The notes below the pieces were generated by a model. It saw only the letters and a list, made by a program, of their open reading frames with translations, was not told where the DNA came from and searched no databases. A stretch of DNA of 64,000 nt from Prorocentrum cordatum (taxonomy: Eukaryota): the NCBI GenBank assembly GCA_963575745.1, contig CAUYUJ010000237.1, positions 1 to 64,000 of the forward strand. The letters are read 5' to 3'. Made by a program: the position numbers and the translations under genes. Of this stretch, positions 2,658 through 50,712 are shown piece after piece (positions within the stretch are counted from its first letter, which is position 1; each line of letters begins with the position of its first letter).

Positions 2658-2679
2658 ACCGTAACCATGTTGGCTCAAT
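2658..2679 (+). other. Relict dinoflagellate spliced leader (19/22), followed by a second more decayed copy at 2681-2700
   Basis: ACCGTAACCATGTTGGCTCAAT versus consensus DCCGTAGCCATTTTGGCTCAAG; then CCGTAGTGTTTTGGGACAGG. Confidence 0.75.
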
Positions 2680-2853
2680 TCCGTAGTGTTTTGGGACAGG
2701 ACTTGACCTTGCTGGCGCGGGGTGGATGGCGGCCCCCAGAGTCACGCTTCGTCGGTAGGTCGGACGAGGGCTATTTGTTTCCCTGGCGTTCGTCCGCCAG
2801 GAACCTTTCGCGATTGCTAGTTTCAGTCTTCGGCAGCTTCCCTGGCTCAAGCG

Positions 2854-3882
2854 ATGGTGGGTTGGGGATGCAGGGCATGTAGTGCACGGAGCAGAGGCGC
2901 TCAGGCTCGATGCTGCACTTGCAAAGGCTACAATCCAGAACATGGGCGAAAGCCAGCGGCAGGACAAGGGCCACCTCAACACGGGGTATGGGCAAGAGGA
3001 CCAGGGGCGCGCGACTGCCTCTTGGCCCTTGGGGAGAACGACCACCCAAGGCCCCGCGAGGACCAGTGCAGCGCCAGCAACCGAAGAGCAACATTGTACA
3101 GCAATTCGATGAGACGCAGATGGAGACTTGGAGGAACATGGCTGACGGCAAGTTTTGTCATCGTCTCGGGCGCCCTGTCGCGGAAACAGCGGGACAGGAT
3201 CACCTACCGCCGTAGGCTGCGCGCGGCGGCAATGGGGGATCCCGAGCTCAACAAGGACCTGCCCCAGGCGGTGGCAAGAGCGCAGCACATGGTGCTCCAG
3301 CCCACCCAGCGCGCAGACAACGCCCAAGCGGCAGCGCGGGAGGCCGCCATGAAGGCGGTGGATTCCCAGCAGGTGCTGCAGCAGGCAACGGAGGAGCTCG
3401 AGCAGGCCAAGCGCGAGGCTGCAACCAAGATCGGCAGCAGTCAGCCAGCAACAAGAGAGCTTCCCCCAGAGCTCTGGAAGCACGTGCGCAAGCTCGCGGA
3501 GCTCGTTAAGAAGCTCACGTCCAGCGCTGAAGGAACCGCGGCAGCGGGTGACGGACTAGAGGAGACAGGAACCAGGCAGCGGGACAAAATCCAGCAAGCG
3601 CTCGCGCAGGTGGAGGCCTTGCTGCGAAACATGCTGGGGCTGCTGCCAGGGCCGGCGCCGCTACTCCAGCCGCGGCGCCAATCGCCCTTTGGGATCCATG
3701 GGGGCCAAGAGGACGCCACCATGGAGGGCTCCCAGTGGATACCTGTTCCAGACGATGAGAGATCGCGGCGGGATGGGATGAGAACGCGTCAGAGGAGACC
3801 AGAGTCAACGCCATTGCAGGTTTCTTCAAAGCCGCGGCCGCGAAGCGGCTGCGGCGAAAGTGATAGGATGGAAATGGAATAA
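2854..3882 (+). pseudogene. LINE-A ORF1-like coiled-coil protein (true start probably further downstream)
   Basis: Ala/Gln/Glu-rich heptad-like sequence (AQRADNAQAAAREAAMKAVDSQQVLQQATEELEQAKRE), lying upstream of EN/RT. Confidence 0.55.
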
Positions 3883-3899
3883 CCGAGTGCGATCCACGC

Positions 3900-4620
3900 G
3901 GCGCCTGAGATCCCCGCGGCGCTCGTCGGCAGGGCGCCGCACCAGCAGGGCACGGGGGGGGGCGCGGGCGCGGGGAGGCGCCTGCGAGACGCGAGCGGCG
4001 GGGCGCAGTTTCGGAAGGCCTCGGCCGCGGACGCGCGGGTGGTCGATGCCCGAGGCCCGAGGCCCCGACGGCCAGCGCCGCGGGGCCCTCGGCGGAGGGG
4101 TGGCCGACGCCTCCGCGCTGGGCCGCGACGGCGGCGAACGCTCGCTGGCAGGCGGCCCCGGCAGAGTCGCGGGGGAGGCGTCGGCGCGGGATCGGGCGCG
4201 TCAATTTCGGCGACCAGCGGCGCGCAATTCCAGAGACCCTCTGCCGCAGACGCGCGGGTGGCCGAAGCCAGAGGCGCTGGGGGCCAGCACCGCGGGGCCC
4301 TCGACAGAGGGGGGGCCGATGCCCCCGCGCAGGGCTGCGACGGCGGCGGCGCCGCTCCCGCGCGACGCCCGCGACCCCTGCACTCGCTGGCGGCCAGCCC
4401 TAGCAGAGGCCAGGAGGAGGCGCGGGCACGGGGGCGAATGCTCCAATTTCGGCGACCAGCGGCGCGAAAGTCCAGAGACCCTCGGCCGCAGACGCGCGGG
4501 TGGCCGACGCCCGAGGCGCCGCGGGCCAGCGCCGTAGGGCCCTCGACGGAGGGGCGGCCGACGCCCCCACTCCGGGTTGCGACGGTAGCGCAGCTGCGAC
4601 TACGGCCCATGCGACCCCCG
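3900..4620. repeat. GC-rich tandem repeat, about 3 copies of 220-240 bp, between LINE-A ORF1 and ORF2
   Basis: The motif GCCGC(G/A)GACGCGCGGGTGG recurs near 4025, 4243 and 4484. Confidence 0.75.
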
Positions 4621-7600
4621 TGATCCCTGGCGACCCCGTCGTTGGGAGGCGCGGGAGGCGGCGTCGGCGCGGGAACGACCTCATCGTCTTCAGCGACCCA
4701 AGCCTGGGACGCAGACCCTCTGCGAAGACCGCCCGTTGGAGCGAGAAGGGCCCGAGCTACCTCGGGCCCGACAACCGCGCGTCAGCAAACTCGCGTCCAG
4801 GGGGTCGCGGTGCGCCGCCTGAAAGGAAAGAGGCCCGACGATGCCAATGAGATGATCTCCGAGGTGGGCTGGGCCGCCATGGCGGTCGCGGCAACGGGGG
4901 CAGCGGGGCATGGGGCACGTGGCCATGGAGGAGCAAGGCCCAGTTCCAAGAAGGACCTGGCATGGAGTAGCAGGCACAGTGGGCAGCTGTGTCGACTCGA
5001 CTCCAGGGATTGGAGGTGCTCTTCGTGCCCGCGCACCTGACAGCACGAGTTGGGCTGGCAGGCCCACGCGTTGAGACTCTCAACAGCATGGCGTCTTTTG
5101 TCAAGACCAAGGGTCTTCTGTTCATCCTTATGGATGATAGGAAAATGGGGCAGCCTGAAGTATACAAGATCCAGATCATCACTTTTCTCAGGAGTGTGGC
5201 GCAGCCCAGAGGAGGAACGGCTAGGTGGTCATAGACTCATTGACGATTGCTTTGTCTCTGGGCAGCTAGGTGGATTGGCCCCCCTCAGATGAGAAGTGAA
5301 AAGCCCCTTGGGCGGCCCCGCGCCACGGCGTGCTCGGGGCCCCCCCGAGCAGCGCCAGAGCAGGTCGCGACGCGAGCGCCAGTGCAGCCAGTGCCAGTTT
5401 TAACAGCTTTTGGCCCAGATGAGTCCTGAGACCTCCATTTGGAAGCGATCCAGGAAAGAGTAAATGTCAGCATGCGCGCCCGGAGCTCGCCGACAAGCAG
5501 CTGGGATCGCCAGGTCATGCATGCGTGGAGCATGCCCCGGCAGCTGAAAATTTGCTGCGCAGCAGGCAGGCCGACGACGGGCAGGCAGCAGCAAGCAATG
5601 AGGGCTTTCTCTCGAGTCCAAGCCCACTCCGTTGCAAGCGACCAAGCCGGTAGGGTCGTCGAACGCAGCCGGCGCCCATTCGCAGTTGACGGCCCTACAG
5701 GCGCGACTTCGTATTCCGAGAGGCCCCGTGTCCAAGGGGTGGGGACGGGAGGTCGGTCTTGTGGGCGGTCGAAGCGATGGCGTGCTTTGCTGCAGAGCTG
5801 CTTGGGCGAGCAGCGGATGCAATGGACGGCTCCGGCAACGAGATGTCAAACCAGTTCAGAAATCTTGGCAGCGAGGCGATCGACAGGGAAGTCACAGCAG
5901 CGGGCCGAATGGCCCGCGGGATCGAATCCCTTTTTCGCAGGAGTGCCCCCGGGGATTCAGGAACTGGGCCCAGGTCAGTTTGGAACAAGGGGCTGGCCGT
6001 GCATCGCCACGCAAAACTCTGGGGCACGCCCGAGAATGTCCTCTTCGTGGCCAGGGGCGCCCAAGGCGATCCGACCCAGGATCTCTCGGTCAGGATTCAG
6101 CGGCAAAAGCAAGGGCCGCCCACGGGATCAGGCATGGCGCAGGACATCCGACGCGCGGCGAGAAAGCATAGCGCCCCTCTAGACCCCATCGAGAGGCAGG
6201 AAGTCTTAGATGCCCTCGAAATTTGCGAAACCGCTCTTAGGCATGGGGGCTGACCGAAGCAACCCGAGCTGGCGGGGCCAGCCCCCGCTAGGTGGCACCC
6301 CCCGCCTCGCCTACCTCCTCCACTCTTTAGAGCTAGAGCTGGCGTGGCCAGCCCAGACAGCGGTCAACGTAGTTCAGCCCATGTATAAGTCTGAGGAAGA
6401 TGACGGACCAATCGCTCTCACCCACGCGCCGCGCGGAGTCTGGCCCCGGATCCGGAGATGGCAGGTCGCCGCGTGGTCGGCCCCGCGCGTTCGCATTCGG
6501 GATGAGGCGGCGGTTGGGCCCAGTTGTTTGCGCGCGGCGTTGTTCCGACAGGTGAAGTTGGAATTGCTCCTCCCCCAGGGTTCCCCTGGTGCGAGGCGCT
6601 TTAGGATATGGTAAGTTGCATGGCGCGCTTCAGCCACGGCAGCTGTGGATAGCAGGTGGGCAAGTTGGCTGCCCTCACCAGCCTCGTCCACGGGCTGGGC
6701 CTCCACTCCGATCCTCGCCTCTGCGAGGGAGATGGGGCGGTGGCCGTGCCAGTCCAGGCCCCCAGGGAATCCTGGCAGGTCGCAGCCACAGCTGCAGCGT
6801 AGCCTTTCTTGCTATGGCAAGCAGGGAGCAATGTCTCCGCATTTCAGCCGAGACAACGCTAGTGCCCCGCCCACCGCACATCGCCAGTGCTGCTCATTCT
6901 ACGCTGCAAGAGTTAGATATCTGTCATTCTGAAGTGCAGCCAGATAGTCCAGGACATAGGCATCGATGGCACGCCGCATCGCAGCGTCACGGCGCGCGCC
7001 AAAGAGAGACGGCAGGCCGGCACAGACAGGGGCAATCTGATCAAGCTAGTGGCCAAGTCGGCGCGCAATGGAACTAGATTTGCCAGGGCAGGGTACGTCC
7101 CGCAGGCAGCTTGGGGCCAGGAGACCCATTCGATCGCGCCGCCAGTGCTGCTTGGCACGCGCGCACAGATCTCGGGGATGATTGGCCGAGAGGAGGGGGG
7201 CTGCGCGACGGCCGCGACCCGCGCGACACCCCCATCGACCCACCGAGATCCTATGGTTTTTGGCGGACTCCGATTGTTTAAGAAATGGGTAGCCATTCTG
7301 CCTATCATCGCCCTGGACAGAAGACAGGCACTAGAATATTGCATGGCGGAAGGCTCGGGCGGATCTCGAGCCAGCCAGCGACGCGCTCAGCAAAGTCAAG
7401 GGCGCGCTCGCGGCACCGATTGCCGCTTTGCAGGATTTAAGTTTCAAGGCAGACGCGCCGCAGAGCTGGGGCGACCAGGACGGGGGGGGGGGCATCAATC
7501 GGAGGCGGACGATCCCGAGCGCATTGGTTGAGTTTGAATACCATGGCGCATTGGATCAGCAAGCGTGGTCGACGGCATCCAAGCACTTCCAGGGTAAGGG

Positions 7601-9296
7601 GCTGGAGCTAGAGTTTGGCCCCGATCTTTGCACGAACAGAACAGGGCGCGAGTGCGCCAGCTCAAAAAAAAGGAAGCATTGTGAATTGAGTGTTTTCCGC
7701 ATGGTCATGACAGGAGCACTCCGGCCAGCCAGCAGAGGATTTGGCGTGGAGGCCTCGCGACCGCCACCGCCGCCCCCCGAGGCCGACGCGGCCGGCCCGC
7801 CCCAGAACCCCGCGGGACCCCGAGACCGTGAAGTTTTCAGGAGGGGGAAGAAGAGGCTGGCTTGTCTTTTGAGGGCGTGCTGCGTCTGACCCAGGAGGAG
7901 GTGGAGCTGGCCTGGGAAGGCCCACCACGGGAGCCCATTGGAGCCCGAGGAGCCCTGCAGACCGCGTCGCCCGACCCGGACCAGCCTGGCTTGCCCTCGG
8001 TGCTTAGCGCCACAGGAAACGCGTTTTTCACCAAGTTTGGGAGTGCCCAGCCAATGAAACCCAGGAAGGGGCTCAACAATGAACTCGCTCCCCAGGCGCA
8101 GGATGAGGCCAACGATTGGCCTTGTTTCTGGCTCCGTTGGTTTGTGCCCGCGTTGAGGACGCACCGGCGCGCGACCCGCCCGGTCCATGGACAACCAATC
8201 TTGGGAGGCGAGCTGGGTGGGCAGCCCTCGTTTCACTTGGGCCAGCGTTCGATCATAGCCACAGACGGATCGGGAGGCAAATGCCATGAAGATTACCGCT
8301 TGCGTAGAGGCGGGCGGGCTCCTGCCATACTCAGAGGATGGGGGGCTCGCGGCTTGGGCACATGGACCAGTCGACCTTTGGAAGCAGCCCGTCCCGATCG
8401 CAGAGCTTACCGCAGTCTCCAAGGCCGTCCATTTCACGACAGGCCCGCTGGTGCTAGTTGCAGGCGCGTAGAATCTCGCCGATGGGATTAGGCAAGGCCC
8501 AGCAGGACTGCATGGGAGCATGCGTTTGTGGAGTACTGTTTGGGAGGCGGTCGGTGACCGCCCGATCGGTCGCCCAAAAAGTCAAGGCCCACCTCTCGGT
8601 AGAGCAGGCCAGGAGGTCCAGGTTCTCCCAGCGCAGTGGCTCGCGAATGTGCATGCTGATGTGTGCGCAGGGGAGGGAGCGAGGGCCGCCCAGGTGCCAG
8701 CCCAGGACACTCAGGAAGTTGTCAGGATCGATGAGCTAGCCAGTCGAGCCCAGCGAAGGCTCACCACAGTGGTAGCACACGTTGCCAGCCACGCTCTGGA
8801 GATTTGTGGGGCTTCGTTTCGGACCGATCGGCAGCATGAGGCCACAAGGCGGGCGGAGGGGCGGAAAGCGCACGAAGAAGCTGCGCGATCAGTCAGGCCC
8901 GGCGCCAAGCGAAGACTGGTGCCATGGGCACTTTACTGCGTGACCTGCCACGGCCGACCCGCCGCCGAGGTCCCCCGCGCCTGCAGTGGCTCGCCTCCCC
9001 ATGCCGAACTCTCCCGCTGCAGCTTGACCCCACCCGCAGGTGGATGAGGTTTCGCGGTTTCTTGTGGTGCAGGGCCTGTGGGGGGGTGGGGGCCCAAAGT
9101 TTCCACGCGTGGGAGAAGCCCTGCACGAGCCTCCGAAGGAGGATCGCTGATGCCCGCGAAGGAGGGAAGATGCCTAAGTATAAAGGGTGGCCCCACCCAG
9201 ACGACCTGGAGCCCCCCGGAGAGGTTTCATTCTAAGTGGTCGCTGCCACTGCGCCGCATGCCAGAGGACCATCGGCGCCCAATTCGGTAAGAGGTA

Positions 9297-11500
9297 AGGG
9301 GAGGAGGAGGAGGAGGAGGAGGAGGAGGAGGAGAGAGGAGGAGGAGGAGGGGAGGAGGAGGAGGAGGAGGAGGAGGAGGAGGAGGAGGAGGAGGAGGAGG
9401 AGGAGAGGGAGGAGGAGGAGGAGGAGGAGGAGGAGGAGGAGGAGGAGGAGGAGGAGGAGGAGGAGGAGGGAGGAGGAGGAGGAGGAGGAGGAGGAGGGAG
9501 GAGGAGGAGGAGGAGGAGGAGGAGGAGGAGGAGGAGGAGAGGAGAGAGAGGAGGAGGGGCACGGGAGAAGAGGAAGAGGGGTATACCTTGTGGCGTCCTG
9601 ACCAAAGCCGGGGCGGCCAGGAGAGGGAGCGGAGGGGAGGGGATGGCCCCAGACTTCGCGACGTCTTGTAAGGAAATGGCGGCCAGGCTCTCCACGGTTT
9701 CGCATGGCTTTCGGGCGTCGTCAAAGAGGGATACGTGAAGAAAGCAACACGTCTTCAGGAAGGGCGCGAGGTTTCGGGGGTTCGCGTACACAAGCAGTCA
9801 CGACTTCGTGGAGGAGGAGTGCAGACGTCTGGGGACAGAGGATCGAGGTTCGGGGATTGAGCCTCTTGGATGGGGGCGGTCTGGGATTTTGGGTGGGGGT
9901 TAATGGGGAAGGGATTCTCGTCGCTACTATCGGACTTTCTTCGAAATTATGGTTCAAACACTAAGTTGTATAGGCCCGGGGCGGAGGAGGATGAGGCGGA
10001 GGAGGAGGAAAAGGGGGAGGCGGAGGAGGAGGAGGATGAGGGGGAGGAGGAGGAGGAGGAGGAGGAGGAGGAGGAGGAGGAAGGAGGACGCCAGCGACGA
10101 CGACGTCAGCGGGAGTGTTCGTTGTCGTCCTCATAAGAGGAGGAGGGGGAGGAGGAGGAGGAGGAGGAGGAGGAGGAGGAGGAGGAGGAGGAGGGCCAGC
10201 GACGACGACGTCAGCGGGAGTGTTCGTTGTTTCGTTGTCGTTCTCGCAGGAGGAGGAGGAGGAGGAAGAGGAGGAGGATGAGGAGGAGGTGGAGGAGGAG
10301 GCGGGAGTCGTCAGCGTTCCGCCCCCCACTGCTCCCCCACCCGTTATTCATTCCATCGTGGCACAGCTTGCACAACATCTATCCTTTTGCGGGCATCCTT
10401 GCTTCACAAGCCCTACGTAGGAGTCTCATTTCCTTGTGGCGCGCTGTTACGTAGAAGCTGCCATCTTACCACCGAGGCCACATCGCCTGAGCGGGGTACC
10501 TTTTTCTTGTGGCAAAGGCGCACAAGTCCGACGGATCCGCGAAGGATGAGACGGGGGAGAAGGAGGATGAGCAGGGGGAGGAGGAGGGAGAAGGGAGAAG
10601 GAGGAGGATGGAGGAGGAGGAGGAGGAGGAGGAGGAGGAGGAGGAGGGGGAGGAGGAGATTGAGGAGCAGGAGGACGAGCAGGGGGAGACCACGGTTCGC
10701 TCGCTGGTGCAAGCCCCTGGGTCGTCTCGGGTGCCCCTCGGGATTCGCTCGCCGCCCACAGCCGCTCTAGCTCAAGCGCACGCTTGGGCTGCGTGATGCT
10801 CCAGACCCTTCGGATTCTCTGAGGCTCCTCCACTTCCTCCTCCTCATCCGCAACCTCCGCCTTCTCTTTCCCCACCTATGCCCTCATCCTCGGCCTCTTC
10901 CTCCTCCTCCTCCTCCTCCTCCTCCTCCTCCTCCTCCTCCTGTGCCTGGCCGCGAGAGGTCGCGCCAGGCACGGTGCCGGAAGAGCTTCCCATGCCCTTT
11001 CTCATGGTCTGCGCCGGCCCTCCCACGCACACGTTGCCGCAATATTGCGCCGCCGTCATCCTCCCGCTCCTCCTCCTCCGCCTCCTCCTCCTCCTCCTCC
11101 TCCTCCTCCTCCTCCCACCCCCTCTTCTCCGCGTTTGCCTCCCTCATCTCAGGCATCGCCTCCCCACCCCTTCCCGACCGCTCCAAGGGTGCAGTCCGAC
11201 CAGAGTTTTGAGGGGAGCTCAGTGGCGACGCGAGGCCCCCCCCCACCGAAGGCCCAAGAGGGCAAAGAACATCGGTCATCGATCTTCTTGCTCCTCATAA
11301 CTCTCCTCCTCCTCCTCCTCATCCTCATCCTCATCCTCATCCTCAACTCCCTCCTGCTTCTCCTCCTCCTCCTCCTCCTCCGTCCCTCCCTCCCTCCCTC
11401 CCTCCCTCCCTCCCTCCCTCCCTCCCTCCCTCCCTCCTCCTCCTCCTCCTCCTCCTCCTCCTCCTCCTCCTCCTCCTCCTCCTCCTCCTCTTTCTCTCCT
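9297..11500. repeat. Clustered (GGA)n/(CCT)n simple repeats with short unique inserts
   Basis: Direct reading; includes a duplicated gccagcgacgacgacgtcagcgggagtgttcgttgt near 10090 and 10195. Confidence 0.85.
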
Positions 11501-23619: not shown

Positions 23620-23883
23620 ATTTGGCGCGTTCCATTGCTTTTTCTGATCGGAGCGTTCTCGGTGTTTCAAAACGGTGCAGCCGCTTCAGTGCCGGCCTCT
23701 TTTTCGGATCGGCGCTCTGCACCCGTCGTTCAGAATCTCGCTCTCGCCCTGCTCCTCCTGCTCCTTCCGCTCTTGCTCCCGTTGCTGTTTGTCTTCGTCC
23801 TCCTGCGTCCTCCTCGTCATCATCATCACCATCATCATTATCATCATCATCAGCATCATCATCATCATCCTGTTCTTTCTGTC
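23620..23883 (+). repeat. Copy of a dispersed repeat family interrupted by LINE-C; other copies at ~29550-29980 and ~31230-31400
   Basis: Shared TCGGTGTTTCA...TTTTCGGATCGGCGCTCTGC..CCGTCGTTCAGAAT.TCGCTCTCGCC; the interrupted copy resumes at ~29149-29350. Confidence 0.7.
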
Positions 23884-23904
23884 CCGTAGCCATTTTGGCT
23901 CAAG
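23884..23904 (+). other. Exact 21-nt DinoSL core at the 5' end of LINE-C
   Basis: CCGTAGCCATTTTGGCTCAAG matches the dinoflagellate SL exactly apart from the first, variable base. Confidence 0.92.
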
Positions 23905-23989
23905 GGCCTCTCGAGGATTTTGCCACAGGGGTTGTTGTGGGCACCTCAGCCAGTGCATTGTGCAATCCCCCTTCTCCCTCCGCTGCTGC

Positions 23990-24794
23990 CGTGGCAGTGG
24001 CGAATGTCGAGTCCATCAAATCCCTGTTGGCTGAGCATATTGCAAGTACGAGTCTCATGCTAGATCAAAAGTTCGATGCAAAGCTCGGGTCGATCACTGA
24101 GACAGTGACGGCCCAAGGTCAGAAGATCCAGGAAATGACGGACAACATCTCCTCGGTCACATCAACCCAGGACGGGCTGCAGGCTCGTCTCGGTGCACTA
24201 GAACAGGCGCATCTGTCATTTGTTTCGAAGGGTCCGTTTTCGCATGCAGTGCCTCTCTCGGGACAGAGAAGGGCCGTCGACTCTGACAGTTCCACCTCGG
24301 CTGGAAACAGTTCAGTTGCTCTAGAGGATGCTTATCGCCTGCTCATTCTGGGGTTCAAGGGTCGTCTCATGGCTTCGACGTTAGAAAGGATCGCCTCCGA
24401 CATTGTAAGCATGGGTGCGACGGAACAGGCGGGGAAACTCATTCGGATCCGTGCTTATGACCTACAGAAGAAGGTGACTCTGGATTTCCCTTCCCCAGCG
24501 ATGGCGTCCGGTTTCTCTGGCAATTTCAGGAAGTTGAGTGAAACCTACTCGGTGCCGAACCCAAGGGACCCGCAGGACCTCAGGTCTCTCCGTGTTCGCA
24601 GAAACCTTTCTACCCAGCATCGTTTTTTGTTCTTCCAGCTGGGGAGAGTGCGTCAGGCGTTGCAGGATGAGATGAATAAGGTAGCGCTTCAGGCTAATTC
24701 GAACGGGATTGGGGGTGATGTTTTTGCGCTCCGCTCGAAGGAGGATCCCGTCCTTTTTTTCACTTCAGATGCTGTCCTCAGAATGCCCGTGTAA
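23990..24794 (+). pseudogene. LINE-C ORF1 (coiled coil followed by an RRM-like region)
   Basis: DQKFDAKLGSITETVTAQGQKIQEM...LQARLGALEQ then RLLILGF; part of ORF 23352-24794. Confidence 0.65.
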
Positions 24795-25134
24795 TCCACA
24801 TTCGCATTGAGGAAGAAGGGCTCGCGGCTTTGGGTCTGCAGTCAGTTCGTGACAAATTCGAGACTGCGTTAGAGTCGGTTCCCTCCTGCCCCTTTTGAGG
24901 AGGAGCAGGACTGGCCTGGTGGCAGTAACTTATACAATGTGCCCAGTGGCCAGCTTTTGGACGCTAGGGAGAGGGGCGCAGATTGTGCCACAGATGGGGC
25001 CCCTCGAGTGTGAATTCAATTAGTAGCGGCAATGCCACCCAAGCTCAGCGCGCGTCTGATCAGTCTCTAAGTGGGGGGTGCCACCGGTTTGAAACGTCTC
25101 CTTCTTTTGCGCCGCCGCCGCCCTTTGCTCTCTC

Positions 25135-28100
25135 TGCCCCCACCTGGAACTCAAGGGGGCTCTTCGCTTCCATCTCTCATGCTTCCCTTCGTGCCTCCAG
25201 ACGGCACCATCAGTTCCTTGCGCATTCTTGTCGAGCCAGTATTTTGCGCATCCAAGAGACTCATGGCACTCAGGGTGATGCCGCGGCCATTCGGACTGAC
25301 TTGCGTGGGTGCTCCATTGGTTTCTCTGGCCGTAATTATGGCATCGCGGGTGGTGTACTCACTGTTCTCTCTCTTGCTCTCTGTCGCCTCTTCGCGGACG
25401 TCGAACGCCATCCTATCGTCCCTGGCGGAATACTTCTATCGAAATGTATTGGCTATAATGGGGCCTCATGGGTGCTCGACGTCCATCTCCCGACCTCTGG
25501 TGAGCCCGCCTGGGCTTTCATCCGTGATCTACGCCGTATTCGTGATGATCTTGCTACCGCTGGGGATGCCTTGTTTTTTGTTTGTGGTGACTTTAACTTC
25601 ACGTTGGAGGAGGAAGGGCGTCGGCGCGCGGATGGGCCCGGGTGGCGCCCTGGGCCGTTATCGACGCGCCGTCTTTGCTCAGCACTTTCCCCGCTGGACT
25701 GAGTTGCGCCGGCCCGAGCCGACCCGTCGCGAGTCACTGGACGGGCAGCTGGTACACGTGAGTCGTCTTGATCGCATAAGTGCGACGAACCCCTCTGCCA
25801 TTCTGTTGGACTTCGCGGTCACTTGTTCGGTTCTTGGCAAGGCGGCTCTTCTCGGGAATGTTTCAGACCATATTCCTGGCGTCGCATTGGTCAGGCGGTT
25901 TTCTCCTGCTGAGTTCCCGCGGATACCGTCCTGGATTGGCCGTCGCCTTATTTTTCATACCGGGCTGGCTTTCCTCTTGGGTGACCTGGACAGAGCTCTG
26001 CCGATTGTGGGCCAGGTCTCTCGGTTGAAACAGCGCGCGCGGGAGGCGGCCCACCAGACTAGGAAACGTCTTCGGGCGAATCGGCAACCGAGGTTGGTGA
26101 GGAGATCCACTTTGCAGTGGCTGCGCTGCGCAGTGTCCGCTCTCGTTCACAGGAACAGCTGAAAGCATAAACATAATCGCATCGTTAACTTGCTCGCTTC
26201 TCCGACGTCGACGAATGCACGCGCCGCTCTCCGTCTTTCTTGCGACCCGCATTCAGTCGCTTCAGAACCGAGAGATCAGGGCTCTAGACCAGGAGAATGA
26301 GCACATGACTGACCTGGATGTCGAGAACCGTCCGAGGGCCAAACGTCAGAGGCGCAAGGAGCTTTGGCGTCCGATGCACAAACGAATCTCCTTGGATGAT
26401 ATCTCGGGGCCCGATGGTCTCCCGCTTGGGTCCGCGGGGCCTGCTGGCGAGGCGCTTGCGGTGCATTGGGGGGGGAGTCTTTGGCGCTCGTGACTGCGAC
26501 GCTGGTCTTTGGCGAGCTGGATGAGATTGTTCAGCCCCTGGAAGGCGTGGCATTCCTGCAGACTCCTTGGTCATGCTATTCGATGGCTTTGAGGCAATGG
26601 TGCGTGCCAGATCTGACCCCATGCCTGGCCCCGACGGCATTGTGTATTCATGTTGGAAAAGCACTGGCCTAATTCTGCATCAGCTCTGCCTTCGCGTCGC
26701 GGAGGCCCGGGGGCAGGGCTGCCGCGCAGCGAGCGACAGATGCTACTGATCTTTCCTGCGAAAGGGGGGCATGCTCCCGATCTCTCTAGCGCCCCTTCTC
26801 GTTATCCCGATGCCTGTCGTCCACTTGCCATGTCTGACGCCGATTGTAAGTTACTATCGATTGCTTTCTCGTGGAGACTTGAACGGCGCGCTCGCGAGAC
26901 TGCGTCGAAGGCTCAGGCCTGTCTCCCTGGTCGCTCGATGACCGACCACATTCTAGAAGCAGAAGTTTGGGGTGTTCAGAACTGCCTGCTGGGGGGGGAG
27001 ACCTGTCCTGCTGGTTTCTTACGGACTTCGTTGCCGCGTTTCCGAGTGTTGCGGTATCTTGGCTTCTGCGCGTTCTTCGAATGATGAATCTGCGCCTTGG
27101 GGTGGCTGGTTTCTTCGACGCGCTCTATCGGGATAACTCTGGCATCGCTTGCTTTGGGGGGCAACGTCGCCGAGCGATTCGTCTGTCGCGGGGAGTTCGG
27201 CAAAGGGGGCCCGTCCAGCATGCTGCTATTGGCTCTGGCGCTTGACCCATGTCTGCGTCGGCTAGCCTCTCGTCTTCCTCGGCAGATGATTGGGCATGCT
27301 GGTGATCTTTGGTCTGGTATGAGTAATGTCGTTATCGATATTCCGATGCTCATCCCTCTCTTGCAGCGTCTCGATGCTGGGATCGGATTTCGGCTGGACC
27401 TGGGGAAGTGCGCTCTGGCGCATCGTGGGTTGTCTCTTACTGCGCGCGCAAGACGACAGATCACACGTATGCTTGCTCATCTCGGCGCGCCTGATATTAA
27501 GCTTGCGCGGCACGCCCGATACTTTGGCATTCAGATTGGCCCTGAGGGGTGGCAGCGCGCACGGGACACGGCGCTTCGTAAGTACCATCAACGTTGTATC
27601 GAGACCCGTCGCCTTCGGATTGGTCTCGCTATGTCGATGCGCATGCATGTCGCGTTCGCTGTCTCGGCATGCGGTTCGTGACGCAATTCTACCCGGTGTC
27701 CAGAGCGATCATGCGCTGTGAGAGTAACATGCAACAGGAGCTGATTGCGGCCCCACGTTTCTCCTTCAATCGAGTTATGCGTACTCGCGTGCAATATCTT
27801 GGTCCTTCGGTTGACTTGCCTGACCCTGCGATGGTCGGGGCTGCCACTCAAGTTCGTCTTGCCCACGCCCCTCGGGTCTTTGAGTACGGGCGCCCCTGAC
27901 TGACCTCTGGTTGCATGGTGACTTTCGCCCCGCTCGCACGGCGTCTCCGTGGTGGCAGCGCACTGTTGTTCGTTCTGTTATCGGTTCCTGGGAAGAGACG
28001 ATATGCCTATGTAGTGCGCCCCTCCAGGCTGGGGGGATCCAACGGAAGCTTGCGGCGCGGCCCAGGGCACTACCATCGACTACTCTTCCGCTTCGCTGTC

Positions 28101-28620
28101 TATTCGATGTATCCCTGGGGTGGAGGCTACGCAAACATCGGCGACTGTTCACTGCGTTCGCAAAACCGTTGCTGCCTGTTCCTGTTATCTCGGGCTTGCG
28201 ATTTTGAAGGTTCGGTTCTCTCTCGCGGTGCGCGCGCGTGTGTGCGGGCGCGAGGTTCCACGGTGGAATCGATAGATGTTTCTGGCGATGCGACTCTGAT
28301 TGGGCGACGGGTTCTCTGGAACATTACCGTGTCTGTCCTGAATTTCGACAGCTCGGCCCAGTCCTCGCCCCATGTTTAGCCCCGTTTTTCAGCGAAGAGC
28401 CCTGGTTCCACTGCTCGACGCTGGCGCCCCCCCCCTCCCCCCCGCCCCTGTTGAACAGTCGTCTGCTCTGCGCGAGCATGTGCGACGCGTTTCTCTTCGT
28501 CCAGGGATGCTCCCGCGAGGGGGCGGCCATCGCTCCTGAGAATTTGTTTCTTGCCCGGATTCGCCCCCACTGTTGGCGCTATCCCAACGCGCAGCTTGCC
28601 TGGGCGTTGGCCAGGGGATA
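25135..28620 (+). pseudogene. LINE-C ORF2 (EN-RT-zinc knuckle), frameshifted
   Basis: Motifs are spread over ORFs 24983-25702, 25071-26162, 26567-26749, 26650-27084, 26967-27245, 27097-27681 and 28238-28621. Confidence 0.85.
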
Positions 28621-31495
28621 GCTTCTCTTCCAGCCTTGTTGCCTGCCCCTGCTCCATGGCCCCCCTTGCCCCCCTTGCTTCTCTCGCCCCCGCCCTTCCT
28701 GCGTTGCCGCCCCCCCCCCCCGCCGCCCCCGCCTGCCTCAGCGGCTGCTTCCTGGAGCGCGGGTTCCGCGAAGCTCGCCGTCGTTGCCGCCTCTCTCTCT
28801 TTTCTTTGACCGTCAGCCCTGCCCGAGCGCGTGGCGCGACAGGGCGAATGCTCGTGGCCTGGTCTGTCGCGCCGTCTTACATGTATCAGATAAAGCACGG
28901 CGCAGGTTACGGAAGTTGCACTGGGACCGCCTCCCCCTCTTTCCTTCTGTTGTCGGGCCGGGCGACCTGACGACGTTCGAGGGGTCGTTGGCTTAGCACC
29001 GCACCTGGTCGTTCCTGCTGGCTGGTGCTGCTCTCACTCTCCTCTTTTAAGGATTGCGCGCTGAGCTGGGCGTTGCCGCCATTTTTTCGCGTCGTCGATA
29101 AAGAGAACCCGAGAGGCCCCTGGGCTGCGATTGGGGAGGGGGGGGGACATCCTTTTCCTTATGTTCATCCTCCTGCTCATCCGCCACCTCCTCCTCCTCC
29201 TCCTCCTTCTTCCCTTCCTCCTATGCGTGCATCTGCCGTTTTCCGAATGTGTACAACACGACTGGTTTCTCTTTGGGAGTTCCACTCCCATGTTTGCCAT
29301 GACACACATCCGCGGGCACCGAACAGTCAGTGCAGTGGGAAGGGATGGGTGGGAATAGAAGGTCATGGTTGACGCGATCGCAGATAGCTGGCCTCTTCTC
29401 AGCTGCACACGATGAATACTATTATCCTCTCTCCCCTGATCCCGTCTGGAAGATAGAAGCCCTCTCCACGCGTTTATGTTTTATACAGCGGATGTCGCAA
29501 GTTGCGTTCGCCAAATATGTTTCTCCAAACATTGTGTTACAAGTATATGCTTTCGGTGTTTCACAATGGCTTTCCCGCTGCAGCGTGGGCCTGATTTTCG
29601 GATCGGCGCTCTGCTCCCGTCGTTCAGAATGTCGCTCTCGCCGCAGCGCGGGCCACGCGTCTGGATCCGAGCCGTTTTTCATCGTTGTCGCTCCCGTCAT
29701 GTCCCCTGCTCCGCCTTCCCCATGTCCTCCTGCTCCTCCCCAACATTCCACTCCAGCCCCCGCTGCTGCTGCCCGTTTTCGCTGTCCTCCCGTTCCTCCC
29801 GTTCGTCCTCCAGCCCATCCACCACTCCTCATCCTCCTTCTTCCCCTCGCCCTATGTGCGCAGCTGCCCTCTCCAGTTGTTCACACTACGATGGGGCGTT
29901 TTTGTTTGGGAGCTCTTGGTCTGCCGTGTCACGCGTCCGCGGGCGCAGAACAATCCGCGGAGTGGGAAGGGATGGATTGGACCCCCTTGGAGGAGCAGGA
30001 AATCAGACGTGGCCCGACCGCACCTACACATTGTTCATGTCTGAGTATTCGGAAATTATATATATATATATATATTAGGGGGGGGCAGGGTCCTTTCATT
30101 TCTAAGCGTTCTATCCCGGGCTTCTTCCTGGCCACTAGGGGGCCAGGAACAATTAGAAGCGAGCACGGTTACTACGCCGTTACAGAAGTTCGTCACGTTT
30201 CGTGAGGGTTTGAAGATTGCAGTGGTTTCGTGTCTTACTTCCGCGTGAGCGGGCGGGCAGAGTTTGACCACTGTCCCGACCGCGCCGAGCTGGCCCCCCC
30301 TTCCCCCCAGAATCCTAGCGGGCTGGGTCAAGAGCGGTCGGGTCAAAGATGCGGGATTTTCAAAAGTGGGATTTCATCCCTTACTATGATGGTATATATT
30401 TAAAACGGTGTAATTTAACATCCCGACGTAAAATCACACGGCTTTAGAACTCCCACCGGGCGGGATTTGCCTTTGCTTATGCAAGATGATCCAATCTCAA
30501 TGTATGACGAATTTTGTTGTAACGCCGATGCAGAAACGAGCACGAATAGAAACGAACGACGTGCAGGAAGCCCGACTTGGCCCGAGCGCGCCTCGATGTG
30601 TACCTGGCCGAAGGGGGCGCCCACGGCCCTCGTGTTCAGATCATCCATCTTCGGAGCGAGTTCCAGGCACGTGCCCTTGCAGAGTGCAAGTCCAGCGTTG
30701 ATAACATCTCGAGGCTCGAAACAGTGCGGGTAACGCTCGGCGGCGAAGAAGTTCCGAACATCCGGAGCGCGTTTGGATGTTCCGTGGGCTCCCCGATTGG
30801 ATTCGACGTGCTCCTAACTTGATTCCCACCCGTTTTCAAACACTTGGAATTGGTTTGAATGTTTCCCACTTTGCAAACTGGTTACCAATTCTGCCAAACC
30901 AATCGAACCGTATTCTCCGATCTCCGCCTGCAATTTCTGAGCTTTGTTCGAGTTATTCCTTTCCTTGGCTCCCGAACTCGAAGTTATAAATTCCCCTCCG
31001 CCCGAACCCAAACCATAATTTCTTTCCCAAGGATGACCGTCTGTGCCCCCTCAGCCAGTTACAAATCTAGCTTGCCTCTCTACAACTTTACATTCAGAAT
31101 ATATGTTCTTCACTCCCCTGATTCCGTCTCGAAGACAGGCGGCCCCTTCCGCGTATTATGTTTTGACACACACAGAGACACACCCGATGCCAAACATTGT
31201 TTTATCCAAGTGTTTTTTCAAACCGATTGGTTTCGGTGCTTTACAATGGTGTTCCCGCTGCAGCGTGGGCCTGATTTTCGGATCCCGAGCGTTTTATCAT
31301 CGTTGTCGCCCCCTCATGTCCCCTGCTCCGCCTTCCACTTGTTCCTGCTCCTCCCGCTCATTCCACTCCAGCTCCCGCTGCTGCTGTTCGTCCTCGTTTT
31401 CTCCTCGCTGCTGCTGTTCGTCCTCGTTTTCTCCTCGTACTCCTCCTCCTCCTCCTCCCCCTCTCCTCTCCTCCTCCTCCTCCTCCTCGCTCATC

Positions 31496-33803: not shown

Positions 33804-33807
<4 letters not shown>

Positions 33808-40829: not shown

Positions 40830-40885
40830 GCGGGGTTGCCGAGGCCTCGTCCTCCTTCTCCTCCACTTCCTCTTCCTCCTTTTCC

Positions 40886-40944
<59 letters not shown>

Positions 40945-41146
40945 GAACATTATTACTTCTAAAGAATAATTATTGTTGGGACCCCTGGTGCACGACCCCC
41001 CTCCAAAACCTAGGCCGCAGCCTCATTTCCTTCATTTTCTAGCGAAAGCTTCAGAAAAGTGGATTAGTACCGGATCCGGTTTTTTGTTGACGCTCGTTTT
41101 CCCTTGCAAAAAACACTATAAAATGAAAATTCTGGTTCTTAGTTGA

Positions 41147-41695
41147 TCAAATTTCAAGAATCCCTTGCAAAAAAAAAGGGAAAGTGGACAATCGTGCGCG
41201 CAAGACGAAATCCTTCCAAAACCTTAGGTTTCGTAACGATTTTAACATAAAAACATCAAAAACCCAATGGTTTTTTAAGAACAAATTGTCAAAATGTCCT
41301 TCCGCGCGCGCTGTCCGAATCCCACAAAACCAATGGTTTTTCAACATTTATGTTACATGAGCTCGCGCGAGCTACTTTTTCTTGTTCTAACATAATCAAA
41401 TTTCAATAATCCCTTGCAAAAAATAAGGTAAAGTGGACATTCGCGCGCGCAAGACGAAATCCTTCCAGAACCTTAGGTTTCGTAACGATTTCAACATAAA
41501 AACATCAAAAACCCAATGGTTTTTCAAAAAAAAATGTCCAAATTTCATCCCGCGCGCGCTGTCCGACTCCCACAAAACCAATGGTTTTTCAACATTTATG
41601 TTACATGACCTCGCGCGAGCTACTTTTTCTTGTTCTAACATAATCAATATTCCCTTGCAAAAAAAAGTAAAGTGGACATTCGCGCGCGCAAGACC
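41147..41695. repeat. AT-rich tandem repeat, ~249 bp unit, ~2.2 copies
   Basis: TCAAATTTCAA.AATCCCTTGCAAAAAA starts at 41147 and 41396; partial third copy from ~41644. Confidence 0.9.
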
Positions 41696-42131
41696 AACAA
41701 AAAACACGACGATCTCAGGAACTTGCCCCAAAAATGTGACCAACTCCGCTCTCTCTGTCTCTCTCTCTGTCTGCTCTCTGTCTCTCTCTCTGTCTGTCTG
41801 TGTCATGTATTGTATGTCACAATTGCAGGATGCTGGGCACACGCGCGCCCCGAATAAGTGACCAAGTTCTGTGGGTGTGTACCCCACGCCAGTGTAGTAG
41901 CCACGGTCGTCCGCACGCCACGAAGTGAAGTGTCCCAACGTCATAGGGCGGGAAGCTGGGTTTGGGTGGTCGCGAAGAGTCGTTTGGATATTTGGTAGAG
42001 CTTGAACTGCCCCCCCACGAAGTGGGGGTATTGTCTCGCGTCGCATGAAAACCCTGGCACTGGTGAGAACACTGAGCGTTCGGGTAAAATGATTGTTGTT
42101 GTTGTTGTTGTTGTTGTTTTTGTGCCTTGCC

Positions 42132-42168
42132 TCCGTTGCCATTTTGTCGCAAACCGTTTTGGTACAGG
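42132..42168 (+). other. Tandem relict DinoSL (18/22 copy plus a 15-nt remnant)
   Basis: TCCGTTGCCATTTTGTCGCAAA followed by CCGTTTTGGTACAGG, shortly after a (GTT)n run. Confidence 0.7.
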
Positions 42169-45960: not shown

Positions 45961-48900
45961 CGATGGGTCCCTGGACTCGGCTTGAAGGCAGAGGTTCAAG
46001 TCCGGATCTGGCGTTCGGTCAGGGCGATGCTCTTGTTCTCTTCCTTGGAACATGTACAACTACTCTGCAGAGGCTTGTCTTGAGACTCTGAGGCTGCGCC
46101 GCATTCGGCACGAATTTCCTCTGGCGCTGTTCAACCCGCGCGTTGCAGGATACCAGGTCGCCACCTGTGGGGCGATTGCCGGCCGTTCAGCTGCTGCGTC
46201 TTTATCTCGCGCTCACTCTCTCGACGCGTTCGACAACATTCCCAGCTGCTTTTGCGGCGCGGGCGGCCCCATTTTGTTCTTGGACCTCATTTCGTTCTTG
46301 TGCGATGAAGAGGTTTCACTCGGCAGACATCGAAGTTTCGACGCGTGCGTCGACGATGCGAACGTGTCTGCGATTGGGGGATGGAGGCATGTGATCGAGT
46401 CGATTCTTATCAGGGCGCCCTGGTTGCATCATGCCATCGATGCCATGATGGGCAACCAGAATGCCCTCGACAAGGCTGCTCTCATCTGTTCGCGCCCTGC
46501 TCTTGGCGAGGCTATCGGAGCTCGCTCTGGGGTGGAGCACGTCGCCGTGGAGTGCTTCGAGGAAGGTTTCTAGGGGACTGGTTTGGTCTCCTCGGGAGCT
46601 GACGATTTTCGTTTCTCCAGGCACGTTTTTCTAGGCGGCAGTTGTTTCAAGTCGGTTATTCAGGAGCTGTCTAGGTCTGGTTGGGCTTCTGCCAGAAACG
46701 CCGACAATGGCCAACCTCTGGGTTGGTGCCTTGGCCCAGCGTTTGCCCACCTCCCACAGGCACCGCAGGCAGGGGAATCCTCGCTTCGGCAGCTGCAGGA
46801 GTGAACTTCGATGGCCCAGCGAACCTTTACTCCGACTGTGCGAACCAGAGGTCGCGGTTGTGGCTCGCACGGAGGTCGACGAACCGAGTACCAGCGAGGT
46901 GGAACGTTTTAGACGGACGAACAAGTACTACGCCGACTTAGCGGCCAAGAGCGGGGCTGAACTTCTCCCCCATCCTGATCTTGTTGTCAGGGAAATAATC
47001 GATGTCCACGTTCGTGTTAGTAAAGCTATGATCAAAATTGCTTGTCAGCTGCTGCCGCTCTGGCTTAAACTGCGACCTATCAGAGATCGAGTATGTCGAG
47101 CCTTCTGTGAAGCTGCCCGCTGACCACCTGTCTCATGTTTTCTTGCACCGCTCGGACGTGTACATTTTTTCTGGCGAGGACCATCGAGGAGTGTCCTTTG
47201 ATCATCGAGGAACATCGCACCAAAACCAGCACATGCACGGGGAGTGCGCGCCCGAGCGATGGTAAGTGCTCGGGATTGGGGGAGCTCTTTTCTGGCAGTG
47301 TCGACTGCTCCTCCGAAGAGAGCGTGGTGTCGCTTGCCCGCCGCTGGGCCGCTGCTCGAGGCCTCCTCGCTTGAACCATGACTTGATTGATGCCAACATT
47401 AAGTCGGGCCTGTCCCTCTACAGGAGGAATATTCAAAACTAGTCAAAAAATAGTATGGGGACGATTTGTTGATTTTGTTCAATCATGTTCTGGAATTTTC
47501 TGACTATTCGTTCGTCCAAAATGCGCCTGTAGGGGCACAGGCCCGACCTAACACAGTTGTGCGTTTATAGACTGCGCAGACGGCCTTTCTTCATGCACCG
47601 GTCCCAAGTGCCACCACTGCGGCAGTGGTGGTCGTCTTGTGCATTCCTCCAAGCCCTGCGTGCCAGACGCAAGCGGCGCTGGGCGGACGAAATGGAAGCA
47701 TGCGTGCTCTGGCCGTTCCCCGCAGGAGAGGAAACAGATTCGCAATGTGCTGTTTCTTCTCTCGCCCTGGGCTGTCGGCTCTTCCCCCTCCCATGCTCAG
47801 GCTCCGTCTGGCTGTAGCGTCTGGCGAGGTGGAGGAGGGAGGTGCCAGACTCTGGAGGTCGAGCCTCCCGATGCTTTGGGCGATGTCGAGGCGGAGGCCT
47901 CACGCTTCTTCCCCGCTTCTGCCAGCCCCGCAGCGGCCGCAACGGCGCCTTGCGCCTCCAGCTCCGCGCCCAGGAGGCCGATGAGCCCCTTCCCCAGAGG
48001 GGGCACTCAGACGTATATGTTCGAACAAGTGTTGTGGTTTATGTTAGTGCTGTTGTTCAGGTCCTGCTCCTCCGCCTCCCCCTCTTCCTGCTCCCTCTCC
48101 TCCTTCTCCTCCTCATGCGTATCTGGCTTCTCCTCCTCCTCCTCCTCTTCCTCCTCTTCCTCCTCCATCCCAGCTCCTTGTAAGTAGCTCCTCCCTGTCG
48201 CACCACCAGACGTGTCGTCAGGGCGGGCCGGGGTGGTTCGCCCGAGCCGCCCTCACCGCTCATGATCTTGAAGCAAACTCCATCTTTCCCACATCTGCAT
48301 GGCTGGGTGTCGGGCCATTGGAAAAATGGTGATCTCGCCTCGGCTCCGCGCACACTGGTGTACAACAGCTCATTCGTCACACGGTCGGATGGCGTGTCGT
48401 GTTGGTTATGATGATATCGCTTGGTGCCGCGCCCTTTCGTCTTGAATATTCCCGGCAGTTCTACGGATGGAACGCGCATGTTTTTCAAAATGGGGTTCTC
48501 GTTTTCGCGACGCGAACACGTGTTATTTACATGTCCGACTGCATGGACGGTGGGCGGGCCGTTTCAAAATCGGGGCTCTCGTTTTGGCGCCGCGTATGCT
48601 CTTCTTGGTCAGTTCCAACAGCCGCGCGGATTGAGGGCGAATGATTCTCAACAGCGGGATCTCGCCTTTGCGCGCGCACACTTGTCTTGAGCATGTCCAG
48701 AAGTTTCACGGATGGAGGGCGCGCCGTTTTCAAAATGGTCTTCTCGTTTGAGACACCTTCGAGCCATATTCCTGCAAATTCAAGTTCCAGATTTACGGAT
48801 GAAAGGCGACTCTGTCTCAAAATGGTCTAAATGGGGCTCTTGTCTGGAATTCAAAAGCTTCAACACGTAGCCAGTACGCCCGGATGGAGGGCGGATCCGT

Positions 48901-49579: not shown

Positions 49580-49736
49580 GATTCGCCAGCTGTGGCACGG
49601 ACGGAGTTTGGCACATCTTCAAGATGAAGATCTCGCCGGAGTTCCTCGAGCGCATGGTCAGTCACATGGATGGGGGGGTGGTTCTCTTCAGCACGGCGCT
49701 GTTCGCCTGCGACCTCGCCTCTTTTTGGTTTCCGAG
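49580..49736 (+). CDS. Host gene exon: (G)FASCGTDGVWHIFKMKISPEFLERMVSHMDGGVVLFSTALFACDLASFWFP(R)
   Basis: TTTTAG acceptor, AG|GT donor, high GC3, phase-1 entry matches exon 40729-40829. Confidence 0.7.
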
Positions 49737-49779
49737 GTGCGCGCCGCACAGCAGCTGCAGGGATGCACGGCGATTCTCT

Positions 49780-50200
49780 TCTGGACCGGGCCCGTGGCTG
49801 GGAGCCTGCCCCGAGCTTGGAACCCCACCCTTTTCAGCAGGGCGCTTTTCGCCTGCGGCATCCTCTCGTTGTGGTGTCCGAGGTGCACAGCCGCACAGAA
49901 CCGCCGCAAGGAGGACGCACGGCGATCCTCTTCCGGACCTGGCTTCCGGACCGGGCCCGCGGTTGGGAGCCCCCCCCGAGCTTGGGACCCCCCACACTTT
50001 TCGCGTGCCTTCGAGCTCGAAGGAGGGCGGGCGGTTCCCTTCAGAGCGGCCCCCCCCCCTTTGAATCGCGGGCTGTCGCTGGGAGCCTCCCCAGAGCTTG
50101 GACCCCCCCACCCTTTTCGCGTGCCTTCGAGCTCGAAGGAGGGCGGAGGGCGGGCGGTGTCCTTCAGAGCAGGCCCCTCCGCTCTGAAGCGCGGGCCCGC
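49780..50200. repeat. Short diverged tandem repeat (GGGAGCC..CCCGAGCTTGG..CCCC units)
   Basis: Units near 49800, 49964 and 50081. Confidence 0.7.
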
Positions 50201-50518
50201 GGGGCGCTCGTCCTTCAAGAGGTGCGCTTCCCGCGGTGGGGCAGAGTGCCTGCAGAAACGGACGGGGAGTAAACTTGGGACAGGAGGGTGTTCTGCAGCA
50301 TCGCTGATGCATCTTGGGTTCACGCTGGTCGTTCATTTTCATCCTCCTCCTCCTCCTGCTCCTCCTCCTCCTCCTTCTCCTCGGAGGAGGAGGAGGAGGA
50401 GTACGTGGATGGTGAGGAGGAGGAGGAGGAGGAAGAGGGGGATGAGGAGGATGAGGATGAGGGGGAGGAGGAGGAGGAGGAGGAGGAGGAGGAGGAGGAA
50501 GAAGAGGAGAGCTCGGAG

Positions 50519-50581
50519 GTCGCGGCCGCGGCTACGATCTGGGTACCTGGGGGCCGCTCCACCGGGGGGAGGGGCCCAGAG
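50519..50581 (+). CDS. Possible symmetric 63-nt host exon SRPRLRSGYLGAAPPGGGAQ
   Basis: AG|G entry and AG|GT exit, phase 2 to phase 2; a unique island between GGA and CCT repeats. Confidence 0.35.
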
Positions 50582-50690
50582 GTGCCGCTCGCGGGATGTG
50601 TAAGGGGGAGGGTCCCCCGCCTCCTCCTCCTCCTCCTCCTCCTCCTCCTCCTCTTCATCCTCGTCATCCTCCTCCTTCTCTTTCCCCTCC

Positions 50691-50712
50691 TCCGTAGTCA
50701 TCCTGGCTCAAG
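50691..50712 (+). other. Relict DinoSL (19/22)
   Basis: TCCGTAGTCATCCTGGCTCAAG immediately after (CCT)n. Confidence 0.8.

Follow-up and report, generated by a model that had tools for sequence, protein, structure and literature searches.

An exact dinoflagellate spliced leader at the head of a LINE in a Prorocentrum cordatum contig with three further spliced-leader motifs

Introduction

After every copy cycle, a long interspersed nuclear element (LINE) must recover a 5′ end that is complete and can be translated. How this is achieved is a basic problem, to which internal promoters, ribozymes and the capture of host promoters are known solutions. Where nuclear mRNAs are capped by trans-splicing, the host could supply this 5′ end for free. 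The question is raised by the first 64,000 nucleotides of contig CAUYUJ010000237.1 of the dinoflagellate Prorocentrum cordatum (GenBank assembly GCA_963575745.1, forward strand), hereafter the window. An earlier note, made from the sequence alone, had described four plus-strand LINEs of several dissimilar families in this window (here units A, C, D and E), each beginning with the dinoflagellate spliced leader (DinoSL, here SL), following a microsatellite and preceding a first open reading frame (ORF1), and had proposed that these LINEs use host trans-splicing to define their 5′ ends.

Nuclear mRNAs of dinoflagellates receive DinoSL by trans-splicing, and SL relicts in the genome, including tandem ones, mark retroposed genes (PMC6050394, PMC12014239). 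An SL heading a genuine LINE provides direct evidence from sequence that a LINE has obtained its 5′ end from the host in this way at least once. Here we report that the element at 23884 (LINE-C) is such a LINE, and we assess what the three other SL-headed units are.

Results

Four SL motifs lie on one strand and are not SL RNA genes

Both strands of the window were searched with DinoSL, allowing up to five substitutions, and exactly four sites were found on the plus strand and none on the other strand. The mismatches in 21 nt are 0 (C), 3 (A), 3 (E) and 4 (D). The sites are listed as putative relicts with their scores in a gapped scan.

2658..2679, plus strand: SL relict A, 19 of 22 nt matching, score 32
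23884..23904, plus strand: SL relict C, exact 21-mer, score 42
42132..42153, plus strand: SL relict D, 18 of 22 nt matching, score 28
50691..50712, plus strand: SL relict E, 19 of 22 nt matching, score 30

With at most three mismatches, the window holds 3 SL matches compared to 0.00 expected from 100 dinucleotide-preserving shuffles. The base preceding the exact 21-mer (position 23883) is C, not A, G or T. Four further matches in the gapped scan scored 20-22 and are noise, with 0-6 such matches in each of six simulated windows; an SL-like stretch near 29069-29092 was weak, under the noise threshold, and was rejected. These results confirm the four SL matches of the earlier note, all on the plus strand and far beyond chance.

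The bases directly after the SLs of A, C, D and E are TC, GG, CC and GC, and GT follows none of them. For comparison, an exact-SL scan of public metagenome contigs yielded 138 sites at 126 loci, 38 with at least 1.5 kb downstream; unlike the four sites of the window, many of these run into GTAC, which we take to be the start of the SL RNA intron. At gathering scores, no SL RNA gene or other Rfam family, tRNA included, was found in the window, and neither an exon followed by a GT intron nor an array of SL RNA genes is present at the four sites. Since none of the motifs precedes GT, they are best read as relicts of spliced RNAs and not as SL RNA genes. Outside the SL and an older relict, the 5′ regions of the four units have nothing conserved in common; a motif of the TTTTG..ACAG type is found a short distance past the first SL in A, C and D.

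The unit at 23884 is a full-length LINE with an exact SL

The SL at 23884 is followed by a leader, ORF1 and ORF2, in the order given below.

23884..29150, plus strand: LINE-C as a whole; the 3′ end is approximate, and cover by related contigs stops before 29010
23905..23993, plus strand: 5′ leader of 89 nt; the methionine of the homologues aligns with GTG at 23994
23994..24898, plus strand: ORF1 (P0075 at E 6e-82 with 56% identity; also P0076), with a frame change near a T-run at about 24754-24755
25127..26078, plus strand: APE-type endonuclease of ORF2 (Exo_endo_phos at E 2e-7, relatives and profile)
26212..27884, plus strand: reverse transcriptase region of ORF2, in pieces in three frames (profile positions 370-926 collinear, hhalign, RVT_1-bearing relatives)

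ORF1, whose start codon is 89 nt downstream of the SL, belongs to a family with two homologous clusters at 49-56% identity (homologues recorded as P0075-P0081), lies upstream of ORF2 and has no DNMT domain by Pfam. The Pfam search covered all 130 frames of at least 180 aa and 222 of the 298 frames of 90-179 aa, 76 low-complexity frames being left out, and its single LINE-type match in the whole window was Exo_endo_phos within 24968-25699 (E 2e-7). A search of 1.84 billion representatives with the endonuclease ORF gave 74 relatives at E ≤ 1e-3, and the six long ones (1021-1273 aa) all carry Exo_endo_phos together with RVT_1. When all 74 relatives were used in tblastn, 95 of 95 high-scoring segment pairs fell in 24989-27678 on the plus strand. 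In addition, a hidden Markov model (HMM) built from the six long relatives matched 25127-27884 as one collinear chain that starts at profile position 2 and ends at position 926, and hhalign gave 98% for the reverse transcriptase fragment at 27088-27678. Pfam RVT_1 itself gives no score on these fragments, and the reverse transcriptase call rests on the profile of the RVT_1-bearing relatives. One protein search for longer homologues of the endonuclease ORF returned none, and the endonuclease alone as query found no relative in metagenome contigs.

The element is broken. The ORF2 chain passes through frames 2, 0, 1, 2, 1, 0, 1 and 0, which amounts to at least seven frame changes, and ORF1 and ORF2 together have at least eight although the SL is unchanged at 21 of 21 positions. 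The change near 26720 falls within DNA where a contig of the DNA run X1 is identical to the window; it is therefore improbable as an assembly error, provided that X1 is not the source of the window itself. Run X1 also holds contigs 85-95% identical to parts of the LINE-C body, with a summed depth of 10-20 compared to about 4 per exact contig. Taken together, these results identify LINE-C as a dead but full-length APE-type LINE consisting of SL, 89-nt leader, ORF1 and ORF2. An endonuclease followed by a reverse transcriptase on one strand was found for C only.

As a separate observation, P0002, which is 39% identical to the LINE-C endonuclease, has a green alga transcriptome (EukProt) as its only source label, which suggests either that dinoflagellate sequence contaminates this data set or that the LINE clade is more widespread.

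Units A, D and E are SL-headed but carry no significant LINE domain

Units A, D and E are SL-headed stretches of about 6-8 kb, for which two features can be given.

2658..9297, plus strand: unit A, SL-headed insertion of about 6.6 kb, type not recognisable, no domain; the 3′ boundary is a candidate
51973..52788, plus strand: ORF in unit E with an endonuclease-like order of motifs, a lead only (Atlas)

The read-through frames of A and D gave nothing LINE-like against Pfam at E ≤ 0.1, and a permissive Pfam search (E ≤ 2) of 40 ORFs found no significant endonuclease or reverse transcriptase in A, D or E. Likewise, tblastn with the 74 relatives of LINE-C and the HMM of LINE ORF2 gave no signal in these units, and hhalign of the LINE profile against 50 of their 63 plus-strand ORFs of at least 100 aa reached a best probability of 0.6%. 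Their first ORFs are unrelated to the ORF1 family of LINE-C, and an Atlas search with the first ORF of A gave no usable match. In E, the ORF at 51973-52788 shows by eye the motif order of an APE endonuclease, and 28 of its 30 named Atlas matches are in Exo_endo_phos sets (scores 0.91-0.92, with few features in common). For the same ORF, sequence comparison, Pfam, HMM and hhalign were all at noise level, a search for homologous proteins gave none, and the AlphaFold model (pLDDT 32) was too poor for use.

The power of these domain searches is probably low. Divergence in the SLs of these three units is 14-19% (10 of 64 positions), compared to 0 of 21 in C, which already has at least eight frame changes; if this divergence reflects age, the frames of these units would be broken every few dozen codons. 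Self-comparison at the nucleotide level and by tblastx found no likeness among the four units except for one block of 120 nt, 74% identical, at 47145-47262 in the far part of unit D and at 50909-51032, about 200 nt after SL E. GC3 periodicity in the window was too weak for calling frames.

Unit E is possibly a LINE. The nature of A and D cannot be told; they are best described as older SL-headed retrocopies that are no longer readable. Thus the claim that all four SLs are LINE 5′ ends holds at 23884, where endonuclease, reverse transcriptase and ORF1 were found, and is not confirmed for A and D, which have no detectable domain, with a weak lead in E; the several dissimilar LINE families of the earlier note were not borne out. 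In the same way, an SL was found to precede ORF1 at 23884 only, where ORF1 has homologues. Elsewhere, an ORF after an SL is uninformative by itself, since this GC-rich window (60.8% GC) has 58 stop-free frames of at least 250 aa.

Older relicts abut the SLs of A and D

Directly downstream of two of the SLs, a second, older relict was detected.

2680..2699, plus strand: second, older full-length SL relict, abutting relict A at offset 0, local score 18
42154..42167, plus strand: truncated relict of the known 15-nt form, abutting SL D at offset 0, score 14

The score of 18 was reached by 0.7% of 4000 random 50-nt segments (p about 0.007). In the leader of LINE-C, a possible decayed older relict at about 23915-23928 is marginal (score 14, p about 0.09), and the same test for E was not significant (p about 0.27). 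The layouts seen in A and D also occur in public contigs (L015, L025 and L052). Tandem relicts are a published mark of repeated retroposition (PMC6050394, PMC12014239), and they imply that the parent copies of A and D were already SL-headed in DNA, were transcribed from a start upstream and were trans-spliced again at or just before the SL. A and D have therefore probably gone through at least two rounds of retroposition.

The SLs follow trinucleotide repeats

As the earlier note had stated, each SL follows a microsatellite: the 60 nt upstream of each SL rank in the top 3.5-10% of window positions by period-3 score. In comparison, only 8 of 118 distinct internal SL sites of the public metagenome contigs reach the same score. 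The repeats next to the units are as follows.

2643..2657, plus strand: purine-rich run of 15 nt, immediately 5′ of SL A; its 15-mer is also the start of the (GGA)n array (9298-9312)
23817..23883, plus strand: (TCA)n microsatellite and 14-nt pyrimidine run, directly 5′ of SL C
29160..29222, plus strand: TCC/TCA-type microsatellite just past the likely 3′ end of LINE-C
42093..42131, plus strand: (TTG)n microsatellite and T-rich run, upstream of SL D
50620..50690, plus strand: (CCT)n-rich tract, upstream of SL E
58500..58645, plus strand: compound TCC-rich microsatellite, possible 3′ flank of unit E, with a 16-mer in common with the 5′ flank

Site A is the weakest, with a short GAG/GGA run abutting the SL and the main (AGG)n array ending about 115 nt upstream. 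Pyrimidines make up 70% (C), 60% (D) and 95% (E) of the 60 nt upstream, and 13% at A, which is purine-rich. The probable distal ends of three units also have similar repeats, from 9298 in A, at 29160-29222 in C and at 58500-58645 in E. Candidate target-site duplications were found for A and E only, and all are of low complexity; the 15-mer of A is a weak candidate that recurs at 9349 and has frequent shorter versions. The pattern resembles insertion of the units into microsatellites, but the sequences involved are of low complexity, and a clean target-site duplication is absent in C and D.

Very high-copy repeats flank LINE-C at 22520-23109, at 29305-30484 and from 31075 onward; the summed X1 depth at these repeats is 5000-7500 and 400-2450, compared to about 4 for unique sequence. 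A dispersed unit that ends in a variable pyrimidine microsatellite is common to 23659-23802, 29553-29642 and 31233-31395. The joints 23672/5 to 31248/97 were considered as an empty site and rejected, as their sides are 21-25 nt long and the dispersed repeat accounts for them.

Discussion

We consider it likely that the four motifs are relict SLs of trans-spliced, retroposed RNAs, one of them derived from the mRNA of LINE-C and three from older retrocopies, of which A and D would have been copied at least twice. What has been observed directly is the motifs with their statistics, the tandem relicts, the LINE structure of C and the richness of the flanks in repeats. Since LINE-C carries the SL as its first bases, at least one LINE family appears to have been expressed as an SL-capped mRNA. 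The proposal that LINEs use trans-splicing to define their 5′ ends thus holds as an inference for one element, because an exact SL lies 89 nt before ORF1 of a LINE with endonuclease and reverse transcriptase; it does not hold as a strategy of several families.

Several results weigh against this explanation. A and D lack any recognisable protein domain, C and D gave no target-site duplication, and a poly(A) or other defined 3′ tail was found for none of the units. The sequencing runs that match 23700-28700 are the DNA runs X1-X3, with no RNA run among them. Within 22520-31360, runs X1-X3 gave no second full-length copy of the C family, and the first 400 nt of the element have single-copy depth in X1; the SL is therefore a candidate limit of homology within the family. 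Downstream of exact SLs in the public contigs (80 flank-bearing loci), RVT_1 was found in 0 of 88 ORFs, these 88 being the ones scanned with Pfam among 126 downstream ORFs of at least 130 aa, with 38 shorter or overlapping ORFs left out. The six-sequence LINE HMM had no match at these loci either, and the single Exo_endo_phos match lay in an AT-rich, virus-like contig without a reverse transcriptase. This sample neither supports nor refutes the explanation because it is not enriched for dinoflagellate chromosomes.

In LINEs of the SLACS/CRE/NeSL type, the endonuclease is restriction-like and the SL exon is the target, which the insertion splits. LINE-C resembles them in being physically tied to an SL sequence, which could then be target DNA in an SL RNA gene and not part of a transcript. 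This is contradicted by the locus and has next to no probability: the entire SL exon precedes the element unsplit, a GT intron is missing both after the SL and after the element, the flank on the 5′ side consists of a microsatellite and a dispersed repeat and not of an SL gene array, the endonuclease is of APE type, and Rfam detects no SL RNA gene in the window. Template switching, which makes chimeric retrocopies with mammalian L1, could also have joined the two sequences if the LINE reverse transcriptase had jumped from the 5′ end of its own RNA to SL RNA or to an SL-capped RNA, the LINE RNA never being trans-spliced. Part of the SL RNA intron would then be expected, and none is present; instead, only the 21-22-nt exon is found, ending at its exact 3′ end, with the identical exact junction in four independent units. 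Moreover, the truncated relict at D is the product expected from splicing at the AG within an older relict (PMC12014239). We regard template switching as very unlikely. That the elements encode and keep an SL-like 5′ end, for Sm binding, translation or cap mimicry, and do not newly acquire it in each cycle, is highly improbable. The TTTTG..ACAG-type motif after the first SL in A, C and D could be read in this way, but it is most simply an older decayed relict; nothing else is conserved in the four 5′ regions, and the young copy is exact and the old copies are decayed, as in neutral DNA.

A broader version of the trans-splicing explanation takes all four units as LINEs of dissimilar families, for which the SL regularly defines and caps the 5′ end and replaces an internal promoter or ribozyme; the earlier note further suggested that such elements could be freed from introns of host pre-mRNA and reinserted at full length. 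LINE-C fits this version, the units have the size of LINEs (about 5-8 kb between repeat flanks), the endonuclease-like ORF of E lies at the right distance from its SL, and the tandem relicts of A and D would be products of repeated cycles. Decay, as seen in the SLs of A, D and E, may have blinded the domain searches. Neither a ribozyme nor any other Rfam family was detected; for a 5′ ribozyme of the R2 or L1Tc type, this is a weak negative in the window at the gathering score, as Rfam may lack some, and 23600-24300 gave nothing but chance C/D-box matches on the microsatellite. What speaks against four LINEs is that Pfam, tblastn, HMM and hhalign all failed to find a significant endonuclease or reverse transcriptase in A, D and E, that the first ORFs of these units fall outside the LINE-C ORF1 family, and that tandem relicts are found on ordinary genes too (PMC6050394). 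We therefore consider it unlikely that all four units are LINEs.

If the motifs are relicts of trans-spliced, retroposed RNAs, LINE-C RNA would have been made within a longer transcript or from an unspecified start, and the capped 22-nt SL would have been joined to it at an acceptor about 90 nt before ORF1. The RNA would then be translated, and target-primed reverse transcription would run from its 3′ end to its extreme 5′ end, so that the SL would become the first bases of the new copy. At the new site, the pyrimidine tract together with the AG within the relict SL would again make an acceptor. In this sequence of steps, the trans-splicing event, reverse transcription over the full length and a possible role of the flanking repeats are inferred. 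The structure of D indicates that re-use of an acceptor at a relict probably happens; such re-use may also drive LINE propagation. A more general model is conceivable, and we hold it with doubt: dinoflagellate LINEs may propagate as SL-capped mRNAs without a promoter of their own, a full-length copy starting with the SL and tending to land in or next to trinucleotide repeats; a pyrimidine-rich repeat and the AG within the relict SL would then make a ready-made trans-splice acceptor, with read-through transcripts of unidirectional gene arrays being cut and capped at the head of the element and tandem relicts recording the cycles.

Relict SLs on retrogenes are well described (Slamovits & Keeling 2008, as told in PMC6050394 and PMC12014239; surveys in PMC5585692 and PMC8045281; also PMC11453091). 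The units of the window are like these in having a DNA-encoded 22-nt SL, tandem full-length and 15-nt relicts and no SL RNA intron, and unlike them in that one copied unit is an autonomous LINE and not a host gene. SL-tagged retrogenes of Symbiodinium are enriched for the GO (Gene Ontology) term ‘RNA-dependent DNA replication’ (PMC5585692), which implies that reverse transcriptase genes with relict SLs had been seen; the enrichment is read there as activated retroposition machinery, and LINE 5′ ends are not mentioned in the relevant passages of that paper. In Schistosoma mansoni, six genome-encoded SL exons are fused to transposable elements, and the authors suggest trans-spliced, retro-transcribed elements while also allowing for assembly chimeras (PMC5832876). 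In both cases a genome-encoded SL exon is joined to a (retro)transposon. Schistosoma belongs to another phylum with another SL, and in P. cordatum the junction lies in a contiguous window, 89 nt before the start of ORF1.

SymbioLINE (PMC5890265) is likewise a dinoflagellate LINE with an ORF1, an ORF2 with Exo_endo_phos and RVT_1, and no poly(A) tail. It has conserved 5′ and 3′ untranslated regions; the term ‘spliced leader’ does not occur in the main text of that paper, and the ORF1 of LINE-C differs in lacking a DNMT domain. The trypanosomatid L1Tc and ingi elements (PMC1874656, PMC8190864) are also LINEs in a trans-splicing host. Their transcripts are unspliced and start from the internal promoter Pr77, whereas LINE-C bears the host SL, which is the opposite solution. 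A statement that dinoflagellate LINEs begin with an SL was not found in the literature, with subscription journals and supplements outside the search. The LINE-C case is thus a corollary of known dinoflagellate biology, prefigured by PMC5585692 and PMC5832876; it extends a known process, in that an autonomous LINE joins the SL-tagged retrocopies, and is not itself a new process.

As it stands, the finding concerns one element in one window. It raises the testable idea that LINEs propagate free of a promoter and use microsatellites as targets. If this were general, dinoflagellate LINE activity would be coupled to read-through transcription as well as to SL acceptor sites, and SL relicts could flag full-length, recently active elements in very large genomes.

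Other features of the SL-bearing contigs and of the window

Many of the exact DinoSL matches in the metagenome lie in AT-rich, virus-like contigs (L002/L003, which are one 12.7-kb contig, L061-L063, L047, L043 and L065), and in L002 the SL is 13 nt upstream of an ATG. Such contigs may come from giant viruses of dinoflagellates whose genomes encode SLs ahead of genes. Other SL-bearing loci hold a RecQ helicase, a DNA polymerase beta/lambda-like gene or ORFs with DUF4116 repeats, and one contig has three SLs on one strand.

LINE-C aside, no ORF of at least 90 aa on either strand of the window reached a Pfam gathering score (low-complexity frames left out), and the window appears poor in genes and rich in repeats (142 TRF rows). 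Among its longer tandem arrays, unit A has repeat units of about 220 nt and unit D has units of 133-144 nt. A stretch of 250 nt is duplicated upstream of D, a 42-nt unit occurs in 12 copies, and there are CCCAAGA-type repeats of 11/21 nt. The long arrays lie at 3991-4585, 44187-44562, 41130-41697, 57265-57778 and 61150-62300.

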